The notes beneath the pieces were generated by a model that was given only the letters and a program-made list of their open reading frames with translations, ran no database searches and was not told the origin of the DNA. A DNA stretch of 64,000 bases from Clostridia bacterium (GTDB lineage: Bacteria; Bacillota; Clostridia; Peptostreptococcales; Anaerovoracaceae), in NCBI GenBank assembly GCA_024403115.1, contig JAKSSL010000003.1, forward strand, positions 8,031 through 72,030, given 5' to 3'. Position numbers and translations under genes: made by a program. This document shows positions 26,886 through 52,223 of this stretch, piece after piece (the first letter of the stretch is position 1; every line of letters begins with the position of its first letter).

Positions 26886-26898
26886 TTCAAGGCTTTTG

Positions 26899-26944: not shown

Positions 26945-28078
26945 ATGTTGCAATTTGAAAGTAATGTAAGCAATGAGGCAATCATAAAAGTTGTAGGTGT
27001 TGGTGGCGGTGGATGTAATGCCATTAACCAAATGATCGACGCTGGTTTAGAAGGCGTAGAATTTATTGCCATTAATACAGATACACAAGCTTTAGGAAGA
27101 ACTAAGGCAGAGATAAAAATACAAATAGGAGACAAGCTAACTCGTGGATTAGGCGCAGGCAGTAACCCTGCAATAGGCCAACAATCTGCAGAAGAAAATA
27201 TTGAAGCTATCGTTTCCAATTTGGAAGGTGCAGATATGGTATTCATCACTGCCGGCATGGGTGGTGGTACAGGTACTGGTGCTGCTCCAGTTATTGCTAA
27301 AGCTTCAAAGGAAATGGGCATACTAACTGTTGGTGTTGTTACAAAGCCATTTAAGTTTGAAGGCCAAAAGAGAAAGAACCAAGCAGAACTTGGTATTGAA
27401 TATTTGAGAAAGTATGTTGATTCATTGGTAGTAATTCCAAATGAAAAGCTTTTGGAAACATGTGATGAGAGCACTTCATTCTTAGACGCATTCCGTATGG
27501 CCGACAATGTACTTCGTCAAGGTGTACAAGGTATTTCAGATTTGATTTCTGATTATGCTTTGGTAAACGTAGACTTTGCTGATGTTAAGTCAGTAATGAC
27601 TGACAGAGGTATTGCACATATGGGCGTTGGTGTTGGAAAGGGCGAAAACAGAGCTATGGATGCAGTTAATGCTGCAATCAAGAGCCCATTACTTGAGACT
27701 ACAATCACAGGGGCAAAGGCCGTTCTTCTATACATCTCAGGTGGCTACGATTTAACTATGTTCGAAGTTAATAAGGTTTCAACTTTAGTACAAGAACAAT
27801 TAGATGAAGATGCAATCATTATCTTCGGAGCTGCTGTTGATGCAGATTTGAGCGATCAAATTTCTATTACAGTAATTGCAACAGGATTTGCAGATATGCC
27901 TGGTATGGGTCTAGGTGGTGGCTCAGCTCGTATAAAAAAAGCTGAAGCTTCAGAACCGGAAATAACAGAAGTCAATGGAGTTAATGCTAGGGAAGTAAAC
28001 CTACAAGACATCATTCCAGAGGATGGAGAAAAAGAGGAAGAATCGAAATTCAAGATTCCTTCATTTTTAGAACATTAA
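26945..28078 (+). CDS. ftsZ: Cell division protein FtsZ
   Basis: Tubulin signature [11 protein letters not shown]-terminus [13 protein letters not shown], and the C-terminal peptide FKIPSFL. Confidence 0.97.
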
Positions 28079-32760: not shown

Positions 32761-35160
32761 ATGAACGAAAAAGCATTAAAGATTTTAGAATACAATAAAA
32801 TAATTGAGATGCTTGTTTCCTATGCCAGCTGTAATATGGCAAAAGAAAGCCTTGAAAAGCTACAGCCTGGCACTGATTTGGATGAAATAAAGGACTCACT
32901 AAGGTCGACCTCAGAAGGGGTTGGCCTTATTGTGCGTAAAGGTCCACTGCCACTAGGCAATTTGTATGATATACATCAAAGCCTAGGCTTTGCCGCAAAA
33001 GGCGGTAGTTTGAACATGGGACAGCTGATGCATGTGGGGTATAATATGCGGGTTGCTTCCCAAGTGAAGAACTTTTTAAACAATGATGACTTTGATATTG
33101 ATTTCCCAATTATCAAAGCTTACTTGGAAGTAATTGAAGAAATGCCAAAACTGTCTGAAAGAATTGAGAAATCAATTATTTCAGAGGATGAAATGAGCGA
33201 TAATGCTTCAGGAGAATTAAGAAGCATACGCCGTGAGATGGCAAGACAAAACGATGAAATCAAGGCAAAGCTTAATAAGATAATAAGCTCTGGTGATAAG
33301 AAATCGGTATTGAGAGATTCTCTTGTAACAATGAGAGACGGTCGTTATGTAATTCCTGTAAAGCAGGAACAAAGATCTAATTTCCCAGGAATAATACATG
33401 ATCAATCATCCAGTGGTGCAACTCTGTTTATTGAACCACAGGTCATAGTTGATTTAAATAACAGACTTAGGGAATTGGAGCTGGAAGAACAGGCGGAAAT
33501 TGCTAGAATCCTAAAGGAGCTTTCAGAGAGAGTTGCTGAATATCATAAGCAGCTTGACAATAATCAAAAGCTTTTGACAGAGCTTGATATTATTATGGCA
33601 AAAGCTAAGCTTTCCCTGGCAATGGACGGAGAAGAAGCTGAAATTTATGAGGATGGAGAGCTAGTACTAAATACTGCAAGACATCCTTTGATTGATAAAA
33701 AAACAGTGGTTCCAATAGACATTTCTGTTGGAGGCGATTACAGAACTTTGGTGATTACAGGGCCTAACACAGGTGGTAAGACAGTAAGCTTAAAGACTGT
33801 TGGCCTTCTATGTCTTATGGCTCAAAGCGGACTTCACATTCCGGCAGCTTCAACGAGCAAATTACCAATATTTGAAAAAATCTTTGCTGATATAGGAGAT
33901 GAACAGAGCATAGAACAAAGCTTATCCACTTTCTCATCTCATATGAAAACAATAGTAAAGATTACTAGATATGCCAACGAAAAATCCCTTATTCTAGTTG
34001 ATGAGCTGGGCGCTGGAACAGATCCAACAGAAGGTGCGGCTTTGGCTATTTCAATATTGGAGAACTTCTATGAAAAGGGAGCATATACTTTGGCTACAAC
34101 TCACTATAACGAGCTTAAGAAATATGCTATATCCACAGAGGGAATAGAAAACGCTTCCATGGAGTTTGATGTGGAAAGTCTTAGTCCTACATACAGATTG
34201 ATTGTAGGTCTTGCTGGAAAATCAAATGCTTTTGAGATTTCCAAGAAATTGGGCTTGGATAAGAAGATAATAGAAAACTCAAAGACAAGAATAGAAACAG
34301 GGGACATGGAATTTGAAGATGTCCTTTCCTCAATAGAACAAGACAAACATGAAGCGGAAAAGGCTCTTGCAGAGGCTAATGTAATAAAGGCTGAGATGGA
34401 AAGAATGGAGCAAGAGTTCCTTAAGAAGCAAAAGCGTCTTGAAAGAGATGAAAAGAAGATCTTGGATGAAGCTCGAGATAAGGCAAAGAGTATAATCCAA
34501 GATGCAGAGGAAACTTCCAAAGAGGTAAAGGAAGAACTTAAGAATCTTGCAATGCGTGATTCCTTAGGGGAAAGAACAAAGGGCTTTGATGAAAGCCGTA
34601 AGAAGCTTAAGGAAGCAAAGCAAAAATATAGCGAAGGATTACAAGAGGAAGCTATAGAGGGTGAAGCAGTCAATGAAGATACCCTTCAAATAGGCGACAG
34701 AGTAAGATTAATTGATATGAATCAAATTGGTGAAGTAATAAGCCTTGCTGATTCAAAGGGAAGATTAAGTGTTAAACTTGGTCTGATGAAGGTTAATACT
34801 CAAATTGATAATCTACTTATGGTGGAAAGCGGAGCTAAAGCGAAAGCTTTAAAAGAGGCTAAGAAGCAGGCTTCCAAAGCCACATATGGAAAGCTATACA
34901 AGGACAAGACCATGCATTTTTCAACAAGCATTAATGTGCAAGGAGAGAACTTGGAAGATGCTTTGGCCAAGGTTGACAAGTATTTGGATGATGCTTTTAT
35001 CTCCAATGTCCACGAGGTTACCATTATACATGGACGAGGAGAAGGAATACTTAAGAGTGGCATTCGTGCCATGTTAAAGAAGAACAAACATGTTGCCTCC
35101 TTCAGAGCTGGTGAAATCAGCGAGGGCGGAGACGGAGTTACGGTGGTGAAATTCAAATGA
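32761..35160 (+). CDS. mutS2: Endonuclease MutS2 (MutS-family ATPase with a C-terminal Smr domain)
   Basis: Walker A ITGPNTGGKTV, DELG.GTDP, long coiled coil, Smr domain (IIHGRGEGILK). Confidence 0.94.
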   Translation: MNEKALKILEYNKIIEMLVSYASCNMAKESLEKLQPGTDLDEIKDSLRSTSEGVGLIVRKGPLPLGNLYDIHQSLGFAAKGGSLNMGQLMHVGYNMRVASQVKNFLNNDDFDIDFPIIKAYLEVIEEMPKLSERIEKSIISEDEMSDNASGELRSIRREMARQNDEIKAKLNKIISSGDKKSVLRDSLVTMRDGRYVIPVKQEQRSNFPGIIHDQSSSGATLFIEPQVIVDLNNRLRELELEEQAEIARILKELSERVAEYHKQLDNNQKLLTELDIIMAKAKLSLAMDGEEAEIYEDGELVLNTARHPLIDKKTVVPIDISVGGDYRTLVITGPNTGGKTVSLKTVGLLCLMAQSGLHIPAASTSKLPIFEKIFADIGDEQSIEQSLSTFSSHMKTIVKITRYANEKSLILVDELGAGTDPTEGAALAISILENFYEKGAYTLATTHYNELKKYAISTEGIENASMEFDVESLSPTYRLIVGLAGKSNAFEISKKLGLDKKIIENSKTRIETGDMEFEDVLSSIEQDKHEAEKALAEANVIKAEMERMEQEFLKKQKRLERDEKKILDEARDKAKSIIQDAEETSKEVKEELKNLAMRDSLGERTKGFDESRKKLKEAKQKYSEGLQEEAIEGEAVNEDTLQIGDRVRLIDMNQIGEVISLADSKGRLSVKLGLMKVNTQIDNLLMVESGAKAKALKEAKKQASKATYGKLYKDKTMHFSTSINVQGENLEDALAKVDKYLDDAFISNVHEVTIIHGRGEGILKSGIRAMLKKNKHVASFRAGEISEGGDGVTVVKFK

Positions 35161-35588
35161 TAGTTGTAAGCAAGTGTTTATTTGGATATAACTGTAAATA
35201 CAATGGCGGTAATAATGACAACGATGAGGTCAAGAAATACTGTGAGGGCAAGGATGTAATTCTAGTATGCCCTGAGCAGGCTGGCGATTTGCCAACACCT
35301 AGAGTCCCATCAGAGATTCAGCCTGATGGTCGTGTCTTATCCCGTGATGGTCAAGACCTTAGCGAAGAGTTTTCTCTGGGAGTTCAAAGGGAAATCTCCA
35401 GGGTTTTGGGCGAGAATAAAGCCATTGAAGAGGCAATACTAAAAGCCAACAGCCCATCCTGTGGCGTAGGTCAAGTCTATGACGGGACTTTTACAGGAAA
35501 GCTGGTCCCAGGCAATGGTAAATTCGCTGAAGAGCTTATGAAGTATTGCTCAAAGATATATACTGAAAAGGAGTTAAATAATGATTAA
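35157..35588 (+). CDS. DUF523 family protein (TudS-like putative Fe-S desulfurase)
   Basis: SKCL.G.NC.Y.G.....CPE..G.LPTPR....I pattern typical of DUF523. Overlaps both neighbours. Confidence 0.75.
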   Translation: MIVVSKCLFGYNCKYNGGNNDNDEVKKYCEGKDVILVCPEQAGDLPTPRVPSEIQPDGRVLSRDGQDLSEEFSLGVQREISRVLGENKAIEEAILKANSPSCGVGQVYDGTFTGKLVPGNGKFAEELMKYCSKIYTEKELNND

Positions 35589-37287
35589 CTATAAACAGGA
35601 AATTGCAAAAATTCTAGATGATAAACTAGTTGATCTAAGTTTAGAAGAAATTGAAAATATGTTGGAGATTCCAGCAGATTCAAAGATGGGAGACTTCGCT
35701 TTCCCTTGCTTTAAGCTGGCTAGAACTCTTAGAAAGGCTCCGCCTCTAATTGCAAAGGATATTGTAGCTCAATTGGAGGGCAATGCTTTGTTTGAAAAGG
35801 TTGAAGCTGTTAATGCCTACGTTAATATGTTTATTTCGAAGGAGATGCTTTTAAAGAATACTGTTGAAAGCACTTTTGAAATGGGCGCTGACTTTGGTAA
35901 AAGCCAAATTGGAGAAGGCAAAACTGTAGTAATAGACTACTCATCTCCTAATATTGCTAAGCCTTTCCACATAGGTCATATTAGATCCACAGTAATTGGA
36001 AATGCTTTATACAAAATCTATGATGCTTTGGGCTATGATGTTGTAAGAATCAATCACCTTGGGGATTACGGCACACAATTCGGTAAGATGATCTGCGCAT
36101 ATAGAAAATGGGGCAATAAGGAAGATGTTGAAAGAGAGCCAATTAAGACTTTGCTTTCATACTATACAAAGTTCCATGAAGAGGCTGAAAAAGATCCAAG
36201 CTTAGATGATGAGGCTAGAGATATTTTTGCAGCTCTTGAAAATGGTGCCAAGGAAGAAGTGGCTCTATGGCAATGGTTTAGAGATGAGTCTTTAAAAGAA
36301 TTCAATCGCGTATATGAAATGCTTGATATTAGTTTTGACTCATACAATGGAGAATCATTCTATTCAGACAAGATGCCAGCAGTTATTCAAGAGTTAAGGG
36401 ATAAGGCTTTGCTTGTACCTTCACAAGGCACAGAAATAGTTGAGCTTGAGCAATTCGGTTTAACAGATGCGCCTATAGTAAAAGCAAATGGTTCATCACT
36501 TTACATCACTCGTGATATAGCCGCTGCAATATATAGAAAAAACACTTACGATTTCTACAAGGATATCTATGTAGTTGCATCACAACAAAATCTTCACTTC
36601 CAACAACTTAAGAAGATTATTGAATTGATGGGTTACGATTGGGCAGACAAGATTGAACACGTACCTTTCGGCCTAGTATCTTTGGAAGAGGGAACTATGT
36701 CAACAAGACATGGCAGAGTAGTCTTCTTGGAAGATGTGCTTAATCATGCGGTAGACAAGACTCGTGAAATCATTAAGGACAAGGGTGTTGTAACAGAAAA
36801 CATCGATGAGACAGCTGCAATGGTTGGAATTGGTGCTGTTGTCTTCAACGAGCTTTCAAATAACAGAATAAAGGATTACGTTTTCTCCTATGACAAGGTT
36901 TTGAATTTTGATGGAGAGACAGGCCCATATGTTCAATACACTCACGCAAGAGCTCTTAGCGTTCTAAGAAAAGCTGGAGTTGAAGATATTGACCTTTCAA
37001 AGATTGATTACTCATATCTAAAAGGCGAGGCTGCAACAAATCTTGCTATGGATATATACAAGCTTCCAGAAGTAATAGTTGAGGCCGCTTCAAAGAATGA
37101 GCCATCAGTTGTTACACGCCACGTTGTAGACTTGGCACAAAGCTTTAACAAATTCTATCATGACGAACATATTTTGGTAGAAAATGAAGATGAAAAGCTA
37201 GCAAAACTTGCTTTAGTAAAAGCTGGACAAATTGCCATTAAAAATGGTTTAAATATTCTAGGTGTAAAAGCACCTGAAAAAATGTAG
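35581..37287 (+). CDS. argS: Arginine--tRNA ligase
   Basis: Class I signature SSPNIAKPFHIGHIRS, an MSTR(H)G KMSKS-like motif, and a DALR anticodon-binding C-terminus. Confidence 0.95.
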   Translation: MINYKQEIAKILDDKLVDLSLEEIENMLEIPADSKMGDFAFPCFKLARTLRKAPPLIAKDIVAQLEGNALFEKVEAVNAYVNMFISKEMLLKNTVESTFEMGADFGKSQIGEGKTVVIDYSSPNIAKPFHIGHIRSTVIGNALYKIYDALGYDVVRINHLGDYGTQFGKMICAYRKWGNKEDVEREPIKTLLSYYTKFHEEAEKDPSLDDEARDIFAALENGAKEEVALWQWFRDESLKEFNRVYEMLDISFDSYNGESFYSDKMPAVIQELRDKALLVPSQGTEIVELEQFGLTDAPIVKANGSSLYITRDIAAAIYRKNTYDFYKDIYVVASQQNLHFQQLKKIIELMGYDWADKIEHVPFGLVSLEEGTMSTRHGRVVFLEDVLNHAVDKTREIIKDKGVVTENIDETAAMVGIGAVVFNELSNNRIKDYVFSYDKVLNFDGETGPYVQYTHARALSVLRKAGVEDIDLSKIDYSYLKGEAATNLAMDIYKLPEVIVEAASKNEPSVVTRHVVDLAQSFNKFYHDEHILVENEDEKLAKLALVKAGQIAIKNGLNILGVKAPEKM

Positions 37288-37297
37288 GGGAATAAAT

Positions 37298-38677
37298 ATG
37301 TTGAGATTTTATATAGCCCTTTGGGCTGCGAAGTTATTTTACTTCATTAACAAGTTAATAGGCAGAGCAAGGGACGACAGACCCGGTTTGCTCGCTTTCA
37401 AAATATGCCCTGATTTCCTAGCGAGAATTGGCAAGCCAAAGCTGATGATTACAATCACAGGAACAAATGGTAAGACTACCACTTCGGCTTTGATCAACTC
37501 ATATTTGAAGGAACAAGGCCTAAGAGTTAGCTTTAATGATTGGGGTGCAAATTTACACGCTGGTTACTGCTTGAATTTAATGCGTTGCGTTAATATTTTC
37601 AACAAGGTGACTAAGATGGATGCCAGCGTTCTTGAGGCAGACGAGAAAACTTTGGCTCATACTATGGGTATGATTAAACCTCACTATGTGTTGGTTACAA
37701 ACATTTCAAAGGATTCTCTTCGCAGAAACGGCCATCCTGAATACATCTTCGACTGTGTAGAAAAATGCTTTGAAAAGCTGGGAGCAGACACTACAGCTAT
37801 TCTAAATGCCAACGATCCTATTTCTTCAGAGCTTGCAAGAAATACAGGTGCAAAGAGAGTCTTCTATGGCATGGACGACATAGGCTCCAATCCTTTTGAA
37901 AACATGGTCAAAGATATAGCTGTTTGCCCTAGATGCGGCGGAGAGCTTAAATACAATTACAGACAATATAGACATATAGGTGATTATTATTGCGCAGACT
38001 GTGATTTTAAGACCAAAGATGCAAAGTTCTATGCTACAAAAGTGGATTTAAAAGCTAGAACTATGGACATATTAGAAGACGGCGAGACTACTACTTATCC
38101 ACTTATTTCTGAAACTATTTTCAACGCTTTTAATGTATTATCAGCGGCAGCCGCTTTAAGAACTATGGGTTATGAGAAGGCTTCTCTGGCTGAGTTCTTT
38201 GAAAGACAAAAGGTAACAGAAATAAGAGAAACATGTGTAAAATACAAGGGCAAGGAGTTCCACACTTATGGAGCTAAGAGCCAAAATGTTTCGGCGGCAA
38301 GTACAGTATTTGAATATATGGCTAAGGAAAAGTCAGATAAAATCGTGGTACTTTGTATGGATGAAGTTCAAGACAAAAACCATCCAACAGAGACTTTAAC
38401 ATGGCTTTATGAAACTGATTTCGAATTCCTGAACAGCCCTAATATTAAACAAATTGTCGTTGCAGGTCACATGTACTTAAACCACAGGCTTCGCTTAATG
38501 CTTGCAGGAGTTGATCCAAATAAGATTGCGGCTTGTGAAGATGAGAGCAAGGTGGCTGACTTAGTTGATTTCAGCCAAGATTTCGAAAAGCTGTATGTTT
38601 TATTCGAGATCGACTATGTTACTAAGGGAAGAAACTGGCGTGATGCCATTGTTGAAAAAGCAAAGGAGGTAATGTAA
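37298..38677 (+). CDS. MurT-like Mur-ligase-family protein, paralog 1 (central ligase domain + Cys4 zinc ribbon + DUF1727-type C-terminus)
   Basis: P-loop GTNGKTTTS, LEADEKT, ILNANDP, zinc ribbon CPRCGG..(17)..CADC. No MurC-F N-terminal UDP-binding domain. The N-terminal helix resembles staphylococcal MurT. Followed by a GatD-like gene with a TAATG overlap. Confidence 0.8.
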   Translation: MLRFYIALWAAKLFYFINKLIGRARDDRPGLLAFKICPDFLARIGKPKLMITITGTNGKTTTSALINSYLKEQGLRVSFNDWGANLHAGYCLNLMRCVNIFNKVTKMDASVLEADEKTLAHTMGMIKPHYVLVTNISKDSLRRNGHPEYIFDCVEKCFEKLGADTTAILNANDPISSELARNTGAKRVFYGMDDIGSNPFENMVKDIAVCPRCGGELKYNYRQYRHIGDYYCADCDFKTKDAKFYATKVDLKARTMDILEDGETTTYPLISETIFNAFNVLSAAAALRTMGYEKASLAEFFERQKVTEIRETCVKYKGKEFHTYGAKSQNVSAASTVFEYMAKEKSDKIVVLCMDEVQDKNHPTETLTWLYETDFEFLNSPNIKQIVVAGHMYLNHRLRLMLAGVDPNKIAACEDESKVADLVDFSQDFEKLYVLFEIDYVTKGRNWRDAIVEKAKEVM

Positions 38678-39399
38678 TGAAAGTGGTAGAAAACTTATTT
38701 CCTGAGCTTTGCAATATATACGGAGAAAGCTACAGCGTTGAATATCTAAGCAGATGCAATGGAGATATCAAGCTGGTTCAAACCAATCACAAAGACGTTC
38801 CTGCCTTTGTTACAGAGGATGTGGATATGGTTTATCTAGGTTGCAGCTCCGAGAGAAAACAGGAACAAATTATTGAGATTTTAAAACCTTACAAGGCAAG
38901 AATTAAGGAATTAATTGACAAAGGAACTATATTCCTTGCAACAGGAAATGCCATTGAGGTTTTTGGTAAAAGTATTAAGGATGAGGATCGTGTTATTGAA
39001 GCTTTAGGCTTATTTGAATTTGATTCGGTAAGATATATGGAAGCTGAAAGACACAATTCTCAATATGTTGGAAGTTTTAAGGCAGACAATGGACCAATAA
39101 CAATGTTGGGACATAGAAGCCAATTCAGTTTCGCATATGGTGATTTTGAAAACTTCCCACATTGGTTGGACATTGAAATTGGTATAGGTATGAATAAGGA
39201 GACAAAGAGAGAAGGCATACACTACAACAACTTCTTTGCCACATATTCACTAGGACCATGTCTAATCATGAATCCGCTTTTCGCAAAATATCTATTAAGA
39301 TTAATGGATATAGATGATAGTCTATTATTTGAAAATGAGATTATGGAAGCTTATGAATACAGAAAACACGAGCTTCGTGAAAATCTAGCAAATAGCTAA
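38677..39399 (+). CDS. GatD-like CobB/CobQ-type glutamine amidotransferase-fold protein, paralog 1, without the catalytic Cys/His
   Basis: Aligns by eye to GatD through LATGNAIEVFG (canonical ..ICGGYQ.LG) and REGIHYNNFFATYSLGP (canonical EGIHY..L.GTYLHGP). The nucleophile Cys and the His are both absent. Confidence 0.75.
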   Translation: MKVVENLFPELCNIYGESYSVEYLSRCNGDIKLVQTNHKDVPAFVTEDVDMVYLGCSSERKQEQIIEILKPYKARIKELIDKGTIFLATGNAIEVFGKSIKDEDRVIEALGLFEFDSVRYMEAERHNSQYVGSFKADNGPITMLGHRSQFSFAYGDFENFPHWLDIEIGIGMNKETKREGIHYNNFFATYSLGPCLIMNPLFAKYLLRLMDIDDSLLFENEIMEAYEYRKHELRENLANS

Positions 39400-39461
39400 A
39401 TTCACAAAAACAACATATTTTCATGGTAGAATAAATAAAAAATTGTCAGAAAGGAGGGCAC

Positions 39462-40205
39462 ATGGTTAGAAAAACTAAGATACTTATGGCGTTAATCGCA
39501 GCGCTTTTAGTAGTAATTGCAGTGATTTCTATACTGTTTATTGACACTAAAAACCTATTAGAAGAAGCGCAAGCGGCAAATGCGGCATACGCTAAAACTG
39601 CGGTTAAAACTCAAAAGAAAATTGAGAAAAAGCAGGCTAAAATCGATGACGTTAAAGATAACTTGGACACTGTAAAGGACAAGAATAAGGACCTTAAGAG
39701 TGAAGTTAAGTCTTTGAAAAAAGCCAATGCTAGATTAGAAAAACAAATTGGAAAAGCAAAGGATGCTCAATATAAAGCCGAAGTTGAATTAAAAAAATAC
39801 AAGCAGAGGAAGAGTAAAATCGACAATGTAATTAACCTCGCAAAAAGTAAGCTTGGCTGCAGATATGTTCACGGCCGTTGTGGCCCATACTATTTTGACT
39901 GTCAAGGCTTCGCATGGTATGTATACCACAATACTGTAGGCTGTATTACAACTGGAGGCTGTCATAAACAATTCAATTCTGTTTCCTATGGTTATGTTTC
40001 GAATAATTTAAGTGATGCCAAAAGAGGAGATTTAATATATTTCCTTAAAGGCAGTTATTATTCTCATGTAGCCCTATATATTGGAGGCGGAAAGATTATT
40101 CACGCAACTACTGGTGGCGGATATCATAGGGTTGTAATTACTTCAATTCCTAGATCATGGGCATCATCATTTAAGGTAGTAAGGCCGATTCCAAATGTAA
40201 AATAA
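39462..40205 (+). CDS. Membrane-anchored coiled-coil NlpC/P60 family cell-wall endopeptidase
   Basis: N-terminal TM helix, about 100-aa Lys/Glu-rich coiled coil, C-terminal NlpC/P60 domain with catalytic Cys (YFDCQGF) and His (YSHVALYIGGGKIIHA). Confidence 0.85.
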   Translation: MVRKTKILMALIAALLVVIAVISILFIDTKNLLEEAQAANAAYAKTAVKTQKKIEKKQAKIDDVKDNLDTVKDKNKDLKSEVKSLKKANARLEKQIGKAKDAQYKAEVELKKYKQRKSKIDNVINLAKSKLGCRYVHGRCGPYYFDCQGFAWYVYHNTVGCITTGGCHKQFNSVSYGYVSNNLSDAKRGDLIYFLKGSYYSHVALYIGGGKIIHATTGGGYHRVVITSIPRSWASSFKVVRPIPNVK

Positions 40206-40215
40206 TGGAGATAAA

Positions 40216-41217
40216 ATGACAAAATTAACTTTTATATTAAGAAAATTAACAGATACAAATTATAAGGCAATTTTTAAAACAGCTTCAGATATTGCAAAGA
40301 TTACAGGCAAGAGCAAATTAGCTATTTTAAAGGATATGGCTGATTGCACTGCCAAATATGGTTCAGGCTACGTTGATTACAAAGACTTTAGAATGTACGA
40401 ATTAAGCCCTGAAAAGAGAGCTGAAATTCTTACAATCACAAAGAACAACGAATTGGTCAGAACTTTGAATCAAGCGGAATACAGAGACTTTTTCGAGGAT
40501 AAAGAAAAATTCAACAGAAAGTTCTCCAAGTATCTTCACAGAGAGTGGATGATAATAAATGGAGAAAACTTTGAGGAGTTTAAGGCTTTCGTAGACGGCA
40601 AGCCAGCCGTTATTGTAAAACCTTTGGGCCTATCATGTGGTAAGGGTATTGAAAAGGTTTACCCTGATCAAGAGAAGGACCTTAAGGCAACTTACGACGA
40701 GCTTTATGCTCACAACTGTATATTAGTTGAAGAGCTTGCAAAGCAATGCGACGAAATGAGCGCTTTCTGCACAACTTCAATCAATACAGTTAGATTGGTA
40801 TCAGTAATCACAAATTCTGGAGAGCCTAAGCTTTGCGCTGGCGTATTTAGAATGGGTAGAGAAGGTGCATATGTAGATAATTTCAATCACGGTGGCATAG
40901 GCGCTAATGTTGATGTTTGGAAAGGCGAAACAGCAACAGACGGCTATGACAAGGATAGAAACATCTACGAGTACACTCCAGTAACAAATCAAAAGCTTAA
41001 AGGCTTCAAAATTCCTCAATGGGAAGCTTGCGAAGCTATGGTTAAGGAAGCCGCAATGGTTGTTCCTCAAGTAAGATATGTTGCATGGGATGTTTGCATA
41101 GCTCCAGAGGGCCCATTGCTAATCGAAGGAAACAGTTATCCAGGCCAAGATTTGTCTCAATATCCTGAGTTGGGACTTGGAACTTACAAAGCGATTACAG
41201 ATGTTTTAAACAGTTGA
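40216..41217 (+). CDS. ATP-grasp ligase, 'sugar-transfer associated' (ATPgrasp_ST-like) family
   Basis: VIVKPLGLSCGKGI, VEE, NFNHGGIGANVD and WDVCIAPEGPLLIEGN match the ATP-grasp core of the alpha-L-glutamate-ligase-related group. Confidence 0.7.
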   Translation: MTKLTFILRKLTDTNYKAIFKTASDIAKITGKSKLAILKDMADCTAKYGSGYVDYKDFRMYELSPEKRAEILTITKNNELVRTLNQAEYRDFFEDKEKFNRKFSKYLHREWMIINGENFEEFKAFVDGKPAVIVKPLGLSCGKGIEKVYPDQEKDLKATYDELYAHNCILVEELAKQCDEMSAFCTTSINTVRLVSVITNSGEPKLCAGVFRMGREGAYVDNFNHGGIGANVDVWKGETATDGYDKDRNIYEYTPVTNQKLKGFKIPQWEACEAMVKEAAMVVPQVRYVAWDVCIAPEGPLLIEGNSYPGQDLSQYPELGLGTYKAITDVLNS

Positions 41218-41226
41218 TTTATAGGA

Positions 41227-41257
41227 AAGGACAAGCTTTAGACTTGTCCTTTTTTTA
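41227..41257 (+). terminator. Rho-independent terminator after the ATP-grasp gene
   Basis: AAGGACAAG-CTTTAGA-CTTGTCCTT hairpin followed by TTTTTT. Confidence 0.8.
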
Positions 41258-41277
41258 TGTGAATTTTAGGGCTTTTG

Positions 41278-41286
41278 TGGTATAAT
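41278..41286 (+). promoter_or_regulatory. Extended -10 promoter element (TGGTATAAT) for the second MurT-like/GatD-like module
   Basis: TG-N-TATAAT at 41278-41286, about 33 nt upstream of ATG 41319. Confidence 0.5.
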
Positions 41287-41318
41287 TACTATGTATAGAT
41301 ATGAATAGGAGAATGACT

Positions 41319-42695
41319 ATGGGAAAGTTAAAATTTCTTGTAGCACACTGGGCTGCAAAGGCCTCAGTTGTAGCTTTAAAAATCACAAAACACAACGGAA
41401 CAAATTTTCCAGGAGAGCTTGCAATCAAGATCTGTCCTGACTTTTTGAAATACATAGATAAGCCTGAAACTATTATTGGAGTAACAGGAACAAACGGTAA
41501 GACTACTGTATGTAATTTGCTAATTGATATGTTCACTGCTGATGGCCAGGTGCCACTTAATAACAGAGCAGGTTCCAATATTAATTCGGGCATTGCAACA
41601 AGTCTAATTCACGGAGCTAATCTATTTGGAAAATGCAAGCACAACCTAGGAGTTTTGGAAATAGATGAAAGATCAGCTTTGAGGGTATTCCCTTATGTAA
41701 AGCCAAACTACTTGATCATTACAAACCTGTTTAGAGATTCCATGAAGCGTAATGCTAACACAGAATATATTGCTGACATTTTAAGCAAATACATTCCTAA
41801 GGAGACTAAATTAGTTCTAAATGCAGATGATTTAATCTCATCAAATGTTGCACCAGAAAACCCAAGAGTATATTTTGGAATCGATAAGATGGATAGTGAC
41901 ATAAAGGAATGCACAAACCTAATCAATGATATTAGAATTTGCCCAGTATGCCATAGCAAATTGGAGTATGAGTATTTGAGATATCACCACATTGGAAAAG
42001 CACATTGCGTTTCCTGTGACTTTAAATCTCCAGGATATGACTACTGTGCAAAGAATGTAAATATAGATGATATGACCATGGAAATAGTTGATAAGGACGG
42101 TCTAGGTAACTACCGACTAATCAGCAATGGCATTCATAATATTTATAATATGGTAACTGTTATTGCACTGTTCAGAGAGCTTGGATACAAGCACGGCATT
42201 ATAGAAAAGTTAATGAGCCAAACTTCTATAGTAAAGAGCAGATATAATGCAGTACCAGCAGGCAAGGTAAGAGTAATAAATCAAATGGCCAAGGAAAACA
42301 ATGCCCTTGGATCATCGAGAGCTTTTGACTTCGTGTCCAAGGAACCTAACGACAAGGAATTGATTTTGATGATGAACTGTCTAGGTGATGAGAAACACTG
42401 GTCAGAAAATACTTGCTGGCTATATGACTGCGACTTTGAATTTCTAAACGACGAAAAGATTAAGAAGATAATTGTTACAGGACCTAGATATAAGGACTAT
42501 ATCCTGAGACTTTTAATAGCTGGAGTTGATAGAGCAAAAATCGTGGACACTGCTCATGAAATTGATGCACCAGATTTGCTGGACTTCACTCCTGGGGAAG
42601 ATATTTATGTCTTCTTTGGAACAGATTCCCTGGCTCTTGGAAACAAGGTCCTTGCCAAAACAATTGACTTGGCAAAAGAAAGGGGTGATAAGTAA
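41319..42695 (+). CDS. MurT-like Mur-ligase-family protein, paralog 2
   Basis: GTNGKTTVC, LEIDERS, FRDSMKR (MurT has FRDQMDR), VLNADDL, zinc ribbon CPVCHS..(17)..CVSC, DUF1727-type C-terminus. ATG 41319 follows TAGGAGA; the track start is 41301. Confidence 0.8.
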   Translation: MGKLKFLVAHWAAKASVVALKITKHNGTNFPGELAIKICPDFLKYIDKPETIIGVTGTNGKTTVCNLLIDMFTADGQVPLNNRAGSNINSGIATSLIHGANLFGKCKHNLGVLEIDERSALRVFPYVKPNYLIITNLFRDSMKRNANTEYIADILSKYIPKETKLVLNADDLISSNVAPENPRVYFGIDKMDSDIKECTNLINDIRICPVCHSKLEYEYLRYHHIGKAHCVSCDFKSPGYDYCAKNVNIDDMTMEIVDKDGLGNYRLISNGIHNIYNMVTVIALFRELGYKHGIIEKLMSQTSIVKSRYNAVPAGKVRVINQMAKENNALGSSRAFDFVSKEPNDKELILMMNCLGDEKHWSENTCWLYDCDFEFLNDEKIKKIIVTGPRYKDYILRLLIAGVDRAKIVDTAHEIDAPDLLDFTPGEDIYVFFGTDSLALGNKVLAKTIDLAKERGDK

Positions 42696-43432
42696 TGAAA
42701 ATTGAAGTATTATTCCCTGAGATTTGCAATCTTTTTGGAGAACTAGCAAACATTAGATATTTGGAATCCAGCTTAAAGGAAAGCGGTGAGTTTTACGAAA
42801 TTACATACACTTCCTTGAAGGATGAACCTTTATTTGCCAGTGAAAAACCGGATTTAATCTACATGGGCGGAATGTCTGAGCATTCTCAAAGCCTTGTTGT
42901 AGACAAGCTTATGCCATATAGAGACAGAATTATTGACTTAATTAAGGACGACACGAATTTCCTTATCACATCAAATGCTTTGGAAATTTTCGGAGAAAGA
43001 ATCGAGTTTTGCGATGCTGACTACGAGGATATTAAAGGCCTTAGCATCTTCCCAACTGTAGCAAAGAATCAAATGTATAAAAGATTCAATTGCCTGTATT
43101 TGGGCAAGCTAGGTGATATGGAAATAGTAGGCTTTAAAAGCCAATTCGGTCATAGTTATTTGAATGGAGACAAGAACTATGAGGACCTATTTGAAACAAT
43201 AAAGGGAACAGGATTAAACCCTGAATATAAAAACGAGGGGATAAAGGTTAATGGCTTCTTGGCAACTTATGTTGTTGGACCTATCTTGGTGCTAAATCCT
43301 GATTTTACAAAGGCTTTAATGAAGAGGATGGGCGTAGGAGAACCAAAGCTGGCTTATGAAGAGGCAGCATACGAAAGCTACAATCAAAGGCTTAATGAAT
43401 ACAAGGAAGAAAATAGAGGCTTCTATTATTAG
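42695..43432 (+). CDS. GatD-like CobB/CobQ-type amidotransferase-fold protein, paralog 2, without the catalytic Cys/His
   Basis: LITSNALEIFG in place of the Cys elbow, and NEGIKVNGFLATYVVGP in place of the ..GTYLHGP His motif. TAATG overlap with the upstream ligase. Confidence 0.75.
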   Translation: MKIEVLFPEICNLFGELANIRYLESSLKESGEFYEITYTSLKDEPLFASEKPDLIYMGGMSEHSQSLVVDKLMPYRDRIIDLIKDDTNFLITSNALEIFGERIEFCDADYEDIKGLSIFPTVAKNQMYKRFNCLYLGKLGDMEIVGFKSQFGHSYLNGDKNYEDLFETIKGTGLNPEYKNEGIKVNGFLATYVVGPILVLNPDFTKALMKRMGVGEPKLAYEEAAYESYNQRLNEYKEENRGFYY

Positions 43433-43441
43433 GAGGAAACT

Positions 43442-44368
43442 ATGGGAAAGATAGTTGTATTTGGAAGTTTGAATATGGATATGAGCATTCGCTCTAACAG
43501 AATGCCTTTAGTGGGCGAGACAATATCTGGAAGCGACTTTATTCAAAACCCTGGTGGAAAGGGTGCAAACCAAGCTATGGCAGCTGCCAAGATGGGAGCA
43601 AAAACAGTAATGCTAGGTTCAGTAGGTGCAGCTCAAACAGGCATGGGTCCTGACAGCAATGGGGTGGCTTTACTAACATCCTTGAAAAAAGCAGGAGTAG
43701 ACACTAGCAGAGTAAAGACTGTTGATGGGCTAGCCACTTCAGTTGCAATAATAGTAAATGCCAATGGCAACAATGCTATTGTAATAGATTCAGAGGCAAA
43801 CTGTTCAAAGGACGTTAACACAATAATTGAAGAACTGGATGGATTAATCCAAGAGGGCGATATACTTATTACACAGAACGAATGTGATATGAACGCCTGC
43901 TATGAAGCCATTAAGTTCGCTAAGGAAAAGGGTGCAATTACAATGCATAATCCTGCACCGGCTTTAAAACCGGGAAAAGATGTTATTCCTTTCATAGATT
44001 ATTTGGTCTTAAACGAGTTGGAATGCCAAACTATTACTGGCATTTTGCCTTATGATGAATATAGCACTAAGGATGCTATTGTGGCGCTTTTGGACATGGG
44101 ATTTAAACATCCAATTATTACTTTAGGTGCCAAGGGAAGCGCAGCTATCAGCAACAAAATTGTTTTTACCATAGATGCATATCCAGTTGAAGTGGTTGAT
44201 ACTACTGCAGCAGGAGATACATATATAGGAGCTTTGGCGACTCAGCTTTTGGAAGAAAAGGACCTATATGAGGCTATGGAATTTGCTTCAAAAGCGGCTA
44301 GTTTAGCAACAACAAAGAGAGGTGCTCAAAGCGCAATACCTACAAGGGAGGAAGTAGAAAATGAGTAA
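43442..44368 (+). CDS. rbsK: Ribokinase
   Basis: PfkB family: GS.N.D, GGKGANQA, C-terminal DTT.AGD and ATTKRGAQ.S.P. Confidence 0.88.
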   Translation: MGKIVVFGSLNMDMSIRSNRMPLVGETISGSDFIQNPGGKGANQAMAAAKMGAKTVMLGSVGAAQTGMGPDSNGVALLTSLKKAGVDTSRVKTVDGLATSVAIIVNANGNNAIVIDSEANCSKDVNTIIEELDGLIQEGDILITQNECDMNACYEAIKFAKEKGAITMHNPAPALKPGKDVIPFIDYLVLNELECQTITGILPYDEYSTKDAIVALLDMGFKHPIITLGAKGSAAISNKIVFTIDAYPVEVVDTTAAGDTYIGALATQLLEEKDLYEAMEFASKAASLATTKRGAQSAIPTREEVENE

Positions 44369-45287
44369 ATTACCAATTATGATAGATACAGATCCTGGAA
44401 TAGATGATGCAGCAGCATTAGCCATTGCTCTGTTCCACCCTGATTTGGATGTAAAGCTAATAACAACAGTTGCAGGTAATGTAAGCATTGAAAAGACAAC
44501 TGCTAACGCATTGAAACTTATTGAAATGTTCGGTAAAGATGTGCCTATTGCACGTGGTTGCGAACATCCATTAGTATATGATTTAGATGATGGAAGCGAA
44601 GTTCATGGAATAACAGGTATGGATGGCTGGGTATTCCCAGAACCTGACTATTCAAGATTGATGAAGGAACATGCAGTTATTGCTATGCGTGATTTGCTTA
44701 TGGAGAGCCCTGAAGAAATCACTTTGGTAGCTATTGGACCTCTTACAAATGTGGGAATGTTGTTCAGACTTTTCCCTGAGGTTAAAGCTAAGATTAATGA
44801 AATAGTTTTGATGGGCGGTTCTGTTACTCGTGGCAACAAGACACCTACAGGAGAGTTTAACATTTATTCTGACCCTGAGGCTGCTCACATTGTATTCACA
44901 AGCGGTTTACCTATTCGCATGGTTGGTTTAGATGTTGGCTGGAAATCCTTCGTTGATGGTAAACATATGGATATGCTACCTGAGATAAACAAGGTCTGCG
45001 AAATGTTGGAAGCTACTTTCAGACATTACAGAAGCAATCAGTTTGAAAAGGGCATTGTTAATATGTATGACAGCGATGCTATTGCAGCTTTAGTAAAGCC
45101 AGAAATGTTCAAATGGGTTAATACGCATTTAGATGTAGAATTGGAAGGCAAATACGGACGTGGCCAAACAGTATGCGATTTAGATGAGCGCTATGGAAAA
45201 GCACATAATGTTACAGTCGCAGTTGATGTTAGCACTAAGGTTTTCCAAGATTGGTTTATTGAATCATTAAAGAATTGTAATATATAA
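44361..45287 (+). CDS. Nucleoside hydrolase (IUNH family)
   Basis: N-terminal fingerprint IDTDPGIDDAAAL and a conserved HD-type core. Confidence 0.88.
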   Translation: MSKLPIMIDTDPGIDDAAALAIALFHPDLDVKLITTVAGNVSIEKTTANALKLIEMFGKDVPIARGCEHPLVYDLDDGSEVHGITGMDGWVFPEPDYSRLMKEHAVIAMRDLLMESPEEITLVAIGPLTNVGMLFRLFPEVKAKINEIVLMGGSVTRGNKTPTGEFNIYSDPEAAHIVFTSGLPIRMVGLDVGWKSFVDGKHMDMLPEINKVCEMLEATFRHYRSNQFEKGIVNMYDSDAIAALVKPEMFKWVNTHLDVELEGKYGRGQTVCDLDERYGKAHNVTVAVDVSTKVFQDWFIESLKNCNI

Positions 45288-48119: not shown

Positions 48120-49370
48120 ATGATTAGAGAATTGTATTTAGATAGTGGCGTAAAACTTGTAATGGAAAAATTGGAGCATGTTCAGTCTGTATCCCTTGGA
48201 TTTTGGGTAAAGACAGGTGCAGTAGATGAGGACCAGTTCTATGCTGGTATTTCTCATTTTGTTGAGCATATGATGTTCAAAGGTACTGACAAAAGAAGTG
48301 CCAAAGAGATTGCTGAAGATGCTGACAAAATAGGTGGAAATATTAATGCTTTTACAGGAAAAGAAGCCACTTGCTACTATATTAAAACTTTAGATTCCAC
48401 TTGGAAGGAAGCAGGTGAGATAATCATCGATATGTTGGAAAATTCTCGCTTCGACCAAGAGGAACTTGATAAAGAAAGACAGGTTATCTGCGAAGAAATC
48501 AAGATGACTGAGGATACTCCTGATGAGTTGGCAATGGACACTATAGGAGAGATCATTTTTGATGGTCATCCTTTTGGCCATTCGGTTATCGGCACACCTG
48601 AGAATTTAAACAGAATTGATCACAAGGTGATGTCAGACTATGTAAAAGCCACTTACACAAGGGATAGCATAGTCATTGTAATTGCAGGTAATTTCGACGA
48701 AGATGAAGCTATCGAATACTTTAATGATAAATTGTTAAAGCTAGACGAAACAAAGGATCCAAGAGTTTTGGAAGAAGCTCCTTTCGAAAGAAAGACTAAG
48801 GTAATAGTAAAAGACATTGAACAAAGTCATCTGTGTCTAGCTACAAGAGCTTGCTCACTTTATGGACCTTTATACTACGAGCTTACACTATTATCAAATA
48901 TTTTTGGCGGAAGTATGAGTTCAAGGCTTTTCCAAAGCATAAGGGAGCAAAAGGGTTTGGCATATACTGTTATGTCAATGAAATGCTCATATGCAAGCGA
49001 TGGCTTTTTCAATATTTACGCAGGTGTAGCTCATAACAAGATTCAGGATGCCATAGACGGAATCAAGGAAGAACTTCTTAAACTTAAAGATGAAGGCATT
49101 ACTGAGGAAGAGCTTGAAATGGCTAAAGTTCAAGCTAAGGCATCATACATTTTTGGTATGGAAAATGTATCATCTAGAATGTTTTCCATAGGTAAAAAAG
49201 AGCTTTTTTTGGGCCACGATATTTCAGGTGAAGAAATAGTTCAAATGATTGATGCTGTAAATATGGATGGAATTAACAAGGCCATTGAAATGGTGAGCAA
49301 TATTGATGAATATTGTGCCTGCCTTGTTACAAATAGTGAAATTGATTTGGAAGAAATGATATGGAAGTAA
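48120..49370 (+). CDS. M16-family zinc peptidase (insulinase-like)
   Basis: Inverted zinc motif HFVEH followed by ..E downstream. 416 aa with two M16 lobes. Confidence 0.85.
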   Translation: MIRELYLDSGVKLVMEKLEHVQSVSLGFWVKTGAVDEDQFYAGISHFVEHMMFKGTDKRSAKEIAEDADKIGGNINAFTGKEATCYYIKTLDSTWKEAGEIIIDMLENSRFDQEELDKERQVICEEIKMTEDTPDELAMDTIGEIIFDGHPFGHSVIGTPENLNRIDHKVMSDYVKATYTRDSIVIVIAGNFDEDEAIEYFNDKLLKLDETKDPRVLEEAPFERKTKVIVKDIEQSHLCLATRACSLYGPLYYELTLLSNIFGGSMSSRLFQSIREQKGLAYTVMSMKCSYASDGFFNIYAGVAHNKIQDAIDGIKEELLKLKDEGITEEELEMAKVQAKASYIFGMENVSSRMFSIGKKELFLGHDISGEEIVQMIDAVNMDGINKAIEMVSNIDEYCACLVTNSEIDLEEMIWK

Positions 49371-50876: not shown

Positions 50877-52223
50877 CTATACTAAACCTTGAGCCATCAT
50901 TGCATCTGCAACTTTGATGAAACCTGCGATATTTGCACCCTTAACTAGGTCATACTTTCCATAGTATTCTTGTGATGCATCTGCACAAGCCTTGTGGATG
51001 TTAACCATGATTGTATGTAATTGGTCAAGAACGTCATCTGCTGAGTAAACAGCCTTGCTTGCGTTTTGTCCCATTTCGATACATGATACAGCAACACCAC
51101 CAGCGTTTGCAGCCTTAGCAGGTCCTACAATGATTCCATTTTCTTGTAGGTAAGCAATAGCTTCGTTAGTTGTAGGCATGTTAGCACCTTCGCATAAGTA
51201 TTTAGCTCCGCTTGCTACGATTTGCTTTGCGTCTTCCATGTGGATTTCGTTTTGAGTTGCGCAAGGGATGTATAAATCACATGCATATTCCCAAGGCTTC
51301 TTTCCAGGAACGAATTTAGCGTTAGGGAATTTTTCAGCGTATGGAGCAACGATGTTCTTTCCTGATGCTCTTAAGTCAAGCATGCATTGCCATTTTTCTT
51401 CTGTGCCAACGCCTTCTTCATCGATGATGTATCCATCTGGACCTGAAATAGTTACGCACTTAGCGCCTAATTCAGTTAACTTCTTTGCAGTTCCCCAAGC
51501 AACGTTTCCGAAACCTGAAATAGCAACTCTCTTGCCTTCAAGCTTGTCTCCGTTAGCCTTAAGCATTTCTTCTGCATACCATACGATTCCGTAACCTGTA
51601 GCTTCAGTTCTTCCTAGAGCTCCGCCGTAAGGGATACCCTTACCAGTTAATACGCCTTCGAATCTGTTTACAATCTTCTTGTATTGTCCGAATAGGTAAC
51701 CGATTTCTCTAGCGCCAACGCCAAGGTCTCCAGCTGGAACGTCAGTTGAAGGTCCGATGTGTCTGTAAAGCTCAGTCATATATGCTTGGCAGAATCTCAT
51801 GATTTCTGCATCGCTCTTTCCGTTAGGATCGAAGTCTGAACCACCTTTACCACCGCCGATAGGAAGACCAGTTAAGCTGTTCTTGAAGATTTGTTCGAAA
51901 CCTAAGAATTTGATGATTCCAGGGTATACGTTTGGAGCAAATCTAAGACCACCCTTGTAAGGTCCGATAGCACTGTTGAATTCATATCTATAGCCTTTGT
52001 TTACATGAACTTTACCGTTATCATCAGCCCAAACGACTCTAAAATGAATTCCTCTTTCAGGTTCAGTGATTCTTTCTAAGATTGAAGCAGCCTCATATTC
52101 AGGATGCTTTTCAATTACTGGTGCAAGAGAAGTTAAAACCTCTTCAACTGTTTGGTGAAATTCAGCTTCGCCAGGGTTTCTTCTTTTAACTTCTTCAATG
52201 CAATTTTGAACATAATTTGACAT
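50877..52223 (-). CDS. gdhA: NADP-specific glutamate dehydrogenase
   Basis: 448 aa. GGGKGGSDFDP catalytic-Lys motif and a Rossmann GFGNVA. The only minus-strand gene in the window. Confidence 0.95.
   Translation of the reverse strand: MSNYVQNCIEEVKRRNPGEAEFHQTVEEVLTSLAPVIEKHPEYEAASILERITEPERGIHFRVVWADDNGKVHVNKGYRYEFNSAIGPYKGGLRFAPNVYPGIIKFLGFEQIFKNSLTGLPIGGGKGGSDFDPNGKSDAEIMRFCQAYMTELYRHIGPSTDVPAGDLGVGAREIGYLFGQYKKIVNRFEGVLTGKGIPYGGALGRTEATGYGIVWYAEEMLKANGDKLEGKRVAISGFGNVAWGTAKKLTELGAKCVTISGPDGYIIDEEGVGTEEKWQCMLDLRASGKNIVAPYAEKFPNAKFVPGKKPWEYACDLYIPCATQNEIHMEDAKQIVASGAKYLCEGANMPTTNEAIAYLQENGIIVGPAKAANAGGVAVSCIEMGQNASKAVYSADDVLDQLHTIMVNIHKACADASQEYYGKYDLVKGANIAGFIKVADAMMAQGLV

Follow-up and report, generated by a model that had tools for sequence, protein, structure and literature searches.

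A clostridial clade of GatD-like proteins that lacks the catalytic residues of GatD and is encoded beside MurT-like ligases

The ligase MurT and its partner GatD carry out the glutamine-dependent amidation of lipid II, a cell-wall step that is essential and drug-targeted in staphylococci, streptococci and mycobacteria. Here we describe a distant relative of this system, found in a stretch of 64,000 nucleotides (the window) from contig JAKSSL010000003.1 of a metagenome-assembled genome of the Anaerovoracaceae (Clostridia; GCA_024403115.1). The window carries two gene pairs, each consisting of a MurT-like ATP-dependent ligase followed by a GatD-like protein. The subject of the analysis is the GatD-like protein of the first pair (GatD-like 1, or paralog 1), which the source genome annotates merely as hypothetical. 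A reading made from the sequence alone had proposed that it is a pseudo-amidotransferase, lacking both the nucleophile Cys and the catalytic His and retained as a partner closely coupled to an apparently active ligase.

The active site of the canonical complex has been dissected by mutation. In Staphylococcus aureus GatD, the replacements C94A, H189A and R128A abolish glutaminase activity, and Gly60 and Gly95 are the oxyanion-hole residues (PMC5871853). The sequence-only reading had stated that replacing the Cys abolishes glutaminase activity in this enzyme class. The triad is completed across the subunit interface by Asp349 of MurT, and C94S, C94G or MurT D349N abolishes glutamine-dependent lipid II amidation (PMC6113224). 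Münch et al. found that the S. aureus complex uses only glutamine at pH 7.5, and that NH3 is usable at pH 8.5. The complex with GatD-C94G loses the glutamine-dependent activity and keeps the NH3-dependent amidation of lipid II, while MurT without GatD is inactive whatever the donor (PMC3266927). A natural precedent is provided by CPS1, an ammonia-using enzyme with a glutaminase-like domain in which Ser replaces the catalytic Cys (PMC4655335).

The gene for GatD-like 1 is an intact open reading frame, and the homology of its product to GatD is far beyond chance. It scores 35.7 bits against Pfam GATase_3 (gathering score 27), as compared with 36.2 bits for the second GatD-like protein of the window (GatD-like 2, or paralog 2). 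With phmmer, GatD-like 1 matches S. aureus GatD (5N9M/6GS2) at E = 2e-13, and also the GatD chains of Streptococcus pyogenes and Streptococcus pneumoniae. A comparison by hhalign of a 36-member family profile with a canonical GatD profile gives a probability of 99.6%. The AlphaFold2 model, made with 36 family members, has a mean pLDDT of 96 and a pTM of 0.93, and shows the class I amidotransferase/GATase_3 fold with an extra C-terminal helix (residues 219-238). Foldseek matches this model to 6gs2_A with E = 6e-19 and a TM-score of 0.81; in the PDB, GatD chains make up the best nine matches (TM-score 0.73-0.82), with other class I amidotransferases following at about 0.55. The glutaminase domains of CobQ and CobB belong to the same Pfam family as both paralogs, but they keep Cys and His, are fused to the CobQ/CobB synthetase domain, and act on corrinoids.

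The window pairs thus descend from MurT/GatD. The relationship is nevertheless a distant one, with identity to the canonical GatD/MurT pair of only about 20-25%. The NCBIfam GatD equivalog models NF052463 and NF045636 give 53.4 bits (cut-off 450) and 48.6 bits (cut-off 400) for paralog 1, and 62.3 and 58.0 bits for paralog 2. Because these scores lie so far below the cut-offs, GatD-like 1 is a distant relative of GatD and not an orthologue by NCBI criteria.

In all the alignments (phmmer, a 154-sequence MAFFT alignment and hhalign), Cys94 of S. aureus GatD is opposite Gly90 and His189 is opposite Leu192. The alignments are ungapped through both motifs and are anchored by the flanking invariant residues (L..G and G-P). 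This bears out what had been read from the sequence alone: the translation contains L-A-T-G-N-A-I-E-V-F-G at the position of the nucleophile elbow, with no Cys in the segment, and TYSLGP with Leu in place of the catalytic His. The GatD motifs that this reading had quoted for comparison match the real S. aureus sequence, which reads GLTICGGYQFLG around C94 and EGIHYKNLLGTYLHGP around H189, and its numbering of these two residues is also correct when counted along the phmmer alignment to 5n9m/6gs2.

Paralog 2 has Ser93 and Val194 at these two positions, so that neither paralog has the nucleophile Cys of the T-I-C-G-G elbow or the His of the H-G-P motif. The oxyanion-hole glycines are likewise replaced, in paralog 1 by Cys56 and Asn91, although the oxyanion backbone NH groups may persist at residues other than Pro. 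The glutamine-sequestering Arg128 is retained as Arg125. Lastly, the partner's Asp349 (Asp355 in S. pneumoniae), which faces the GatD active site, is found in neither ligase, being replaced by Thr366 in ligase 1 and by Asn370 in ligase 2. Because the Cys, the His, the partner Asp and the oxyanion residues have all been replaced, the whole catalytic apparatus has gone from both pairs, and not only the two residues flagged initially. The sequence-only reading in this respect understated the loss, which paralog 2 and both ligases share.

Some of these replacements are those that have been engineered in S. aureus. Gly90 of paralog 1 corresponds to C94G, Ser93 of paralog 2 to C94S, and Asn370 of ligase 2 to D349N. 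The difference is that the engineered proteins carry single changes in a canonical enzyme, whereas here the changes are joined with a remodelled and conserved pocket.

Four other residues of paralog 1 (Cys12, Cys56, His126 and His146) are near-invariant within its orthogroup, a combination that the rest of the family lacks. The equivalent of Cys56 in S. aureus GatD is Gly60, which belongs to the oxyanion hole and lines the pocket.

The partner ligases, as judged by their conserved residues, are apparently active. Ligase 1 scores 63.4 bits against Pfam MurT_C and 63.2 bits against Mur_ligase_M, and matches S. aureus MurT (7q8e/6gs2) over residues 3-411 with a phmmer E of 6e-43. The NCBIfam MurT equivalogs (cut-off 800) give 161.9 and 136.7 bits for ligase 1 and 185.4 and 180.5 bits for ligase 2, so that both fall below the cut-off. 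Both have the MurT architecture of Mur_ligase_M and MurT_C with a Cys4 zinc ribbon (C-x2-C ... C-x2-C) and no UDP-binding N-domain. The residues that bind ATP/Mg and the acceptor carboxylate in MurT (S. aureus K59/T60, E108, D110/E111 and N264/N267; S. pneumoniae N85, D136 and R140; PMC6085368) are present in both. They comprise the GTNGKT P-loop, the equivalents of Glu108, Asp110, Glu111, Asn264 and Asn267, the acceptor-binding G-A/S-N motif (Asn85) and the Asp136/Arg140 loop. The aromatic and acidic residues that follow a conserved Trp are also retained. In ligase 1, K59 and N85 are present and E113 is the equivalent of E108. Across the related loci described below, K59, E108 and D110 are each found in 55/55 ligases and N267 in 54/55.

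The position of Asp349 presents a different picture. Thr is at least 90% conserved there in the ligase-1 subfamily, and the residues found there in 49 adjacent pairs are T 27, N 14, R 4, E 2, D 1 and P 1. Directly before it lies a new conserved motif, H-P-(T/S)-E in subfamily 1 and H-W-S-E in subfamily 2, in a stretch that includes a three-residue insertion relative to S. aureus MurT.

A profile built from both paralogs was run against 1.84 billion cluster representatives (50% identity clusters), and columns were counted over either the best 150 representatives or 116 full-length representatives. At a threshold of E<=1e-3 the search matched 1308 clusters, and at E<=1e-30 it still matched 205. 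In the Cys column the best 150 have G 132, S 13, N 2, A 1 and C 1, and the full-length set has G 102, S 10, N 2, A 1 and C 1. In the His column the best 150 have L 79, I 37, V 12 and T 7, plus others, with His occurring once, and the full-length set has L 66, I 29, V 7 and T 6. None of the best 150 has the Cys and the His together. The loss is therefore that of a large conserved clade, and not an oddity of a single genome.

What has replaced the catalytic residues is itself conserved. In the full-length set, the residue following the Cys column is N in 106/116, and the Gln98 column is E or D in 115/116. The family has TGNAxExFG in place of ICGGxQxLG, and (N/K)NFxxTYL(L/I)GP where canonical GatD has YxNxxG(T/S)YxHGP. 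The oxyanion strand has the consensus G-(S/P/A/T)-(M/L), with Pro at the Gly60 column in 32/116. Other features of GatD are retained: Gly55 (G59 in S. aureus), Glu59 (D63), Gln62 and Arg125 (R in 107/116), the N-x-Y-G-(D/E) loop, E-G at 179-180, the D/E17 loop and the C-terminal helix. The stretch that contacts MurT also persists, as an invariant G-P (G193 in 116/116, P194 in 114/116) followed by L-x-x-N (N199). No substitute Cys or His column reaches 50% conservation across the family.

The arrangement of the genes is also that of MurT-GatD as known from S. aureus (6GS2/5N9M), S. pneumoniae (6FQB) and S. pyogenes (9SQ9), namely a translationally coupled two-gene operon with the ligase first. 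In both window pairs the GatD-like gene lies directly downstream of the ligase gene and its start overlaps the ligase stop as TAATG; in the first pair there is an AGGAGG 7 nt upstream of the start. Set against these likenesses, which include the GatD fold, the R128 equivalent, the G-P-x-L-x-x-N stretch and the ligase residues listed above, are the replacements of Cys by Gly or Ser, of His by Leu, Ile or Val, of the MurT Asp by Thr or Asn, of the oxyanion glycines, and of Gln98 by Glu.

Genome loci were retrieved with close orthologues of paralog 1, and the sample is thus biased to that orthogroup. In 47 related loci there are 49 adjacent MurT-like/GatD-like pairs, of which none has the Cys and none the His. 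The clade also includes natural proteins in which a MurT-like ligase (with MurT_C) and a dead GATase_3 domain form one chain (P0132, P0156, P0163 and P0233; 698-758 residues), and these fusions support a physical complex between the GatD-like and MurT-like proteins, which we infer for the separate genes also. Because the replacement motifs are conserved, fusions exist, the ligases keep their ATP-site residues, and as many as 205 clusters match, the clade is taken to be maintained and not to consist of decaying genes. The description of paralog 1 as a pseudo-amidotransferase coupled to an apparently active ligase thus gains support, from the loss of triad and oxyanion residues, the ATP-site residues, the gene overlap and the fusions.

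Orthologues of paralog 1 with 56-76% identity occur in the Anaerovoracaceae and relatives (Baileyella, Lentihominibacter, Brotomerdimonas, Mobilibacterium and Mogibacterium), and more distant members, with 37-50% identity, in Oscillospiraceae, Sporobacter, Acutalibacteraceae and Peptostreptococcaceae. Databases name members of the clade 'hypothetical' or 'CobQ-like/predicted glutamine amidotransferase'. The clade differs from canonical MurT-GatD in that a genome may carry one, two or three paralogous pairs, in many cases together with an ATP-grasp ligase. The two window pairs are only 40% (GatD-like) and 36% (MurT-like) identical, which implies an old duplication with both copies maintained. 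Two of the loci carry a third and more divergent pair beside the paralog-1 pair (L001, 6497-8567; L016, 4897-6978), in which Gly takes the place of the Cys, Ile or Thr that of the His, and Glu that of Asp349, so that some genomes contain three dead pairs.

The only recurrent neighbour families in the related loci are MurT-like, GatD-like and ATPgrasp_ST, besides two unlabelled clusters of open reading frames without a match to any window protein, which are taken to be antisense shadow frames. An ATPgrasp_ST ligase adjoins the pair in 32/43 loci, and also in L048 and L050; it is a conserved third component of the module in Peptostreptococcales. Locus L048 is a compact five-gene operon (MurT-like, GatD-like, ATP-grasp, MurT-like, GatD-like), and L050, from a Peptostreptococcaceae genome, has the trio ATP-grasp, MurT-like, GatD-like. 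In Oscillospiraceae the pair is single and its neighbours are housekeeping genes; in one genome it follows ylmE-sepF-divIVA-ileS-lspA-rluD-trmB. Further lone pairs occur in variable contexts (L051 and L052), and a YfhO-family protein adjoins one pair. Among cultured organisms, Lentihominibacter hominis NSJ-24 and Brotomerdimonas butyrica have two pairs and the ATP-grasp ligase, Baileyella intestinalis and Mobilibacterium timonense have one pair and the ATP-grasp ligase, and Sporobacter termitidis DSM 10068 has one pair but lacks the ATP-grasp ligase.

The AlphaFold2 model of the ATP-grasp ligase (pLDDT 93.8) has RimK, Ddl (D-Ala-D-Ala ligase) and L-amino-acid ligases as its nearest folds, at TM-scores of about 0.5, and the predicted resemblance is at the level of the general fold only; a sequence search of this protein against the PDB gave no match. 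It has an N-terminal helical extension of about 100 residues. A homologue with 40% identity stands alone beside pheS/pheT in another locus (L049, 8001-9005), and the family is therefore not limited to MurT-like neighbourhoods.

In the window, the genes upstream of MurT-like 1 are, in order, MutS2, a 2-thiouracil-desulfurase-like gene and ArgS. The order from MurT-like 1 onwards is GatD-like 1, NlpC/P60, ATPgrasp_ST, MurT-like 2, GatD-like 2 and a PfkB kinase. A scan for promoters and terminators over 35000-44600 gave counts equal to the shuffled expectation, and does not inform the limits of the operon. The NlpC/P60 gene was considered as a part of the module and rejected, since none of the 43 related loci has it and it occurs in this genome only. 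Its product has a coiled coil of about 100 residues and apparently both the catalytic Cys (DCQGF) and His. The coordinates of the features are collected in Table 1.

Table 1. Positions in the window of the two MurT-like/GatD-like pairs, their active-site positions and other genes discussed
Feature	Position	Strand	Basis or remark
MurT-like ATP-dependent ligase 1, 459 aa	37298-38677	+	Mur_ligase_M, Cys4 zinc ribbon and MurT_C; ATP site intact
H-P-(T/S)-E motif, ligase 1	38381-38392		directly before Asp349 position
Thr366 codon of ligase 1	38393-38395	+	at S. aureus MurT Asp349; phmmer and MAFFT, HPTETLTW opposite ADGRDTSW
GatD-like 1, 240 aa, putative pseudo-glutaminase, subject of this work	38677-39399	+	GATase_3, GatD PDB matches, AlphaFold2, Foldseek
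Cys12	38710-38712
Former oxyanion strand G55-C56-S57	38839-38847	+	opposite S. aureus G59-G60-G61
Cys56	38842-38844
Former nucleophile elbow L87-A-T-G90-N91-A-I-E94-V-F-G97	38935-38967	+	Gly90 = Cys94, Asn91 = Gly95, Glu94 = Gln98
Arg125	39049-39051	+	glutamine-sequestering Arg128 of S. aureus GatD; MAFFT and hhalign (S. aureus R128, S. pneumoniae R142)
His126	39052-39054
His146	39112-39114
T189-Y-S-L192-G-P, replacing T-Y-L-H189-G-P	39241-39258	+	Leu for catalytic His; MurT-contact G-P retained
NlpC/P60 endopeptidase, CwlO/RipC-like	39462-40205	+	N-terminal membrane anchor and coiled coil; Pfam NLPC_P60 52.9 bits; RipC-like NCBIfam matches
ATPgrasp_ST-family ATP-grasp ligase, 333 aa	40216-41217	+	Pfam PF14397, 160 bits
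MurT-like ligase 2, 464 aa	41301-42695	+	36% identity to ligase 1
H-W-S-E motif, ligase 2	42396-42407		directly before Asp349 position
Asn370 codon of ligase 2	42408-42410	+	at Asp349; alignment
GatD-like 2, 245 aa, putative pseudo-glutaminase	42695-43432	+	40% identity to paralog 1
Ser93 of paralog 2, replacing Cys94	42971-42973	+	alignment
Val194 of paralog 2, replacing His189	43274-43276	+	alignment
dcw-type cell-wall/division cluster	16220-28078		about 9 kb upstream of pair 1
SpoVD-like penicillin-binding protein	18107-20110		dcw cluster
MurF	20120-21499		dcw cluster
MurD	22485-23852		dcw cluster
FtsZ	26945-28078		dcw cluster
2-thiouracil desulfurase family gene	35157-35588		PF04463
M16-type peptidase-like protein	48120-49370		YfmF/YfmH families, below cut-offs
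NADP-specific glutamate dehydrogenase	50877-52223	-

Judged by the residues it has lost, the GatD-like subunit is very probably not a conventional glutaminase. The explanation that we favour, and to which we would give about an even chance, is that GatD-like 1 is a non-catalytic scaffold of a glutamine-independent, probably ammonia-dependent, ligase of the MurT type. The body of the GatD fold would have been kept while the Cys-His machinery and the partner's Asp were replaced, and it would be retained because a MurT-type ligase is stable and active only in complex with a GatD subunit. The MurT-like ligase would bind ATP and phosphorylate the carboxylate of a peptide, which most probably belongs to a lipid-linked precursor of peptidoglycan. 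A nitrogen nucleophile from a source other than the hydrolysis of glutamine would then attack the acyl-phosphate. The nucleophile is most likely to be free ammonia, which is abundant in these Clostridia of the gut and rumen, as they ferment amino acids. This scheme would apply to the second pair also. The scaffold role, ammonia as the donor and peptidoglycan as the acceptor are thus what we infer.

The model is favoured by analogy, because the C94G complex of S. aureus keeps its activity with NH3, because MurT needs GatD, and because CPS1 provides a precedent. Like CPS1, the GatD-like clade has a class I amidotransferase module that has lost its nucleophile and is conserved and tied to an intact synthetase; in CPS1 the module is a structural part of a synthetase working on free ammonia. 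CPS1 differs in being an unrelated eukaryotic synthetase, a single polypeptide with ATP-grasp domains, in which only the Cys is lost. The context is also that of the cell wall, pair 1 lying about 9 kb downstream of a dcw cluster and an Oscillospiraceae pair lying after ylmE-sepF-divIVA-ileS-lspA. The NADP-glutamate dehydrogenase encoded in the window is in keeping with life at high ammonia.

Several observations weigh against this explanation. Anaerovoracaceae have two or three pairs and a RimK/Ddl-like ATP-grasp ligase within a single operon, and such multiplicity exceeds what is needed to amidate one carboxylate. The strong conservation of TGNAxE and of H-(P/W)-(T/S)-E hints at a site that has been remodelled and is not simply empty. 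The S. aureus complex itself uses NH3 at pH 8.5 only, and not at 7.5 (PMC3266927). The scores far below the NCBIfam MurT and GatD cut-offs imply that the acceptor may differ, and in the paralog-1 orthogroup Cys56 lines the old pocket.

An alternative is possible, if on balance doubtful. Here the MurT-like ligase would have ceased to transfer ammonia and, in the manner of the usual Mur ligases, would join an amino acid, a dipeptide or a polyamine to one of the free carboxylates on the stem peptide, such as the D-isoglutamate (D-iGlu) alpha-carboxyl. The ATP-grasp ligase would either supply the dipeptide, in the way that Ddl supplies MurF, or extend the product by another residue, and the dead GatD-like protein would be a scaffold or an aid in binding the new donor. 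The tight linkage of two or three divergent pairs to the ATP-grasp gene (the L048 operon, 32/43 loci and the L050 trio) argues for this, as do the nearest folds of the ATP-grasp protein. The new motifs, TGNAxE with its change of Gln to Glu and H-(P/W)-(T/S)-E, lie exactly at the former inter-subunit site, the second of them in the ligase C-terminal domain, which in Mur ligases binds the incoming amino acid, and paralogs that are just 36-40% identical are what would be expected after a split of substrates. Ddl with MurF, and cyanophycin synthetase, are cases in which an ATP-grasp and a Mur-type ligase work jointly on one peptide product, but the analogy is functional only, the ATP-grasp here being of another family (ATPgrasp_ST). 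Against such a role, no donor can be named, and the old glutamine pocket looks from the sequence to be filled by the bulkier Met/Leu57, Asn91 and Leu192 and not opened. Moreover, Oscillospiraceae have a lone pair and no ATP-grasp, one ATP-grasp homologue with 40% identity stands alone, and several pairs could equally serve several acceptor carboxylates with ammonia.

In a more far-reaching form of this idea, which we likewise hold to be doubtful, the pairs and the ATP-grasp ligase could form a new tRNA-independent pathway that builds a peptide or amine branch on free carboxylates of a lipid-linked peptidoglycan precursor, such as the alpha-carboxyl of D-iGlu. Each pair would add a different residue, and the former glutaminase site would have been rebuilt for donor binding or regulation. 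Classical chemotype work describes substitutions on peptidoglycan carboxylates, the enzymes for which are, to our knowledge, unassigned.

It is improbable, in our view, that the acceptor lies outside peptidoglycan altogether, for instance in a capsule or a secondary polymer of the wall, or in a peptide or polymer made in the cytoplasm as by cyanophycin synthetase, which combines ATP-grasp and Mur-ligase chemistry. The low equivalog scores would fit such an acceptor, as would the Pfam name of the ATP-grasp family ('sugar-transfer associated ATP-grasp'), the variable flanks of L051 and L052 and the YfhO-family protein beside one pair. However, the closest relatives by both sequence and fold are MurT and GatD, and the acceptor-binding G-A/S-N motif, the Asp136/Arg140 loop equivalents and the zinc ribbon are all retained. 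In addition, the pair is near dcw or division genes in two orders, and the conserved neighbours include no glycosyltransferase or polymer-export gene.

Least probable is a cryptic glutaminase in paralog 1 that uses relocated residues (e.g. Cys56 with His126 or His146), or a metal site with Cys12: these four are conserved in its orthogroup (Cys12 118/120, Cys56 119/120, His126 120/120, His146 120/120), Cys56 aligns with Gly60, whose backbone lines the catalytic pocket, and Arg125 is retained, but 79/240 positions, about a third, are equally conserved in that close orthogroup, the wider-family columns read C/A/G, S/P/A/T, Y/H/F and F/Y/H with the Cys-Cys-His-His combination in 0/116, paralog 2 has Gly, Phe and Phe at three of them, and the partner's Asp349 is lost too. 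Other conserved Cys or His residues as substitutes were thus rejected at the level of the family. We know of no class I amidotransferase with its nucleophile on the oxyanion strand.

Searches of the accessible literature brought up no account of a GatD clade that is catalytically dead, but only work on canonical MurT/GatD and on archaeal MurT-like genes without a GatD partner. A survey that calls the murTgatD operon 'widespread in the Clostridiales' (PMC6085368) does not note it. A large share of the clostridial 'MurT/GatD' genes forms a separate clade, whose glutaminase cannot work in the known way. The annotations 'glutamine amidotransferase' and 'lipid II isoglutaminyl synthase' are therefore wrong, or at least unproven, in abundant gut and rumen bacteria. 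The window pairs in particular ought not to be classed as lipid II isoglutaminyl synthase, because the Cys, His and oxyanion glycines of GatD and the Asp349 of MurT are missing and the equivalog cut-offs are not reached.

The clade provides a natural experiment on why MurT needs GatD without the use of glutamine, and is a candidate for an ammonia-dependent route of peptidoglycan amidation or for a new system of branch-adding ligases. The amidation state of peptidoglycan shapes its recognition by host NOD receptors and lysozyme, and the chemistry of these gut organisms therefore has relevance on the host side. A literature search on the peptidoglycan chemotype of Anaerovoracaceae gave nothing useful, and no paper was found for the ATPgrasp_ST family name.

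Some other genes of the window deserve mention. No MurE was found among the open reading frames annotated in the window, which has the dcw-type cluster listed in Table 1. The NADP-specific glutamate dehydrogenase gene is the sole long minus-strand gene in its part of the window, and its presence would be compatible with assimilation of ammonia at high ammonia. The 2-thiouracil desulfurase family gene shares a few bases with the end of mutS2, and likewise with the start of argS. Finally, the M16-type peptidase-like protein matches the YfmF/YfmH families that are associated with the 5-aminopentanol modification of EF-P.

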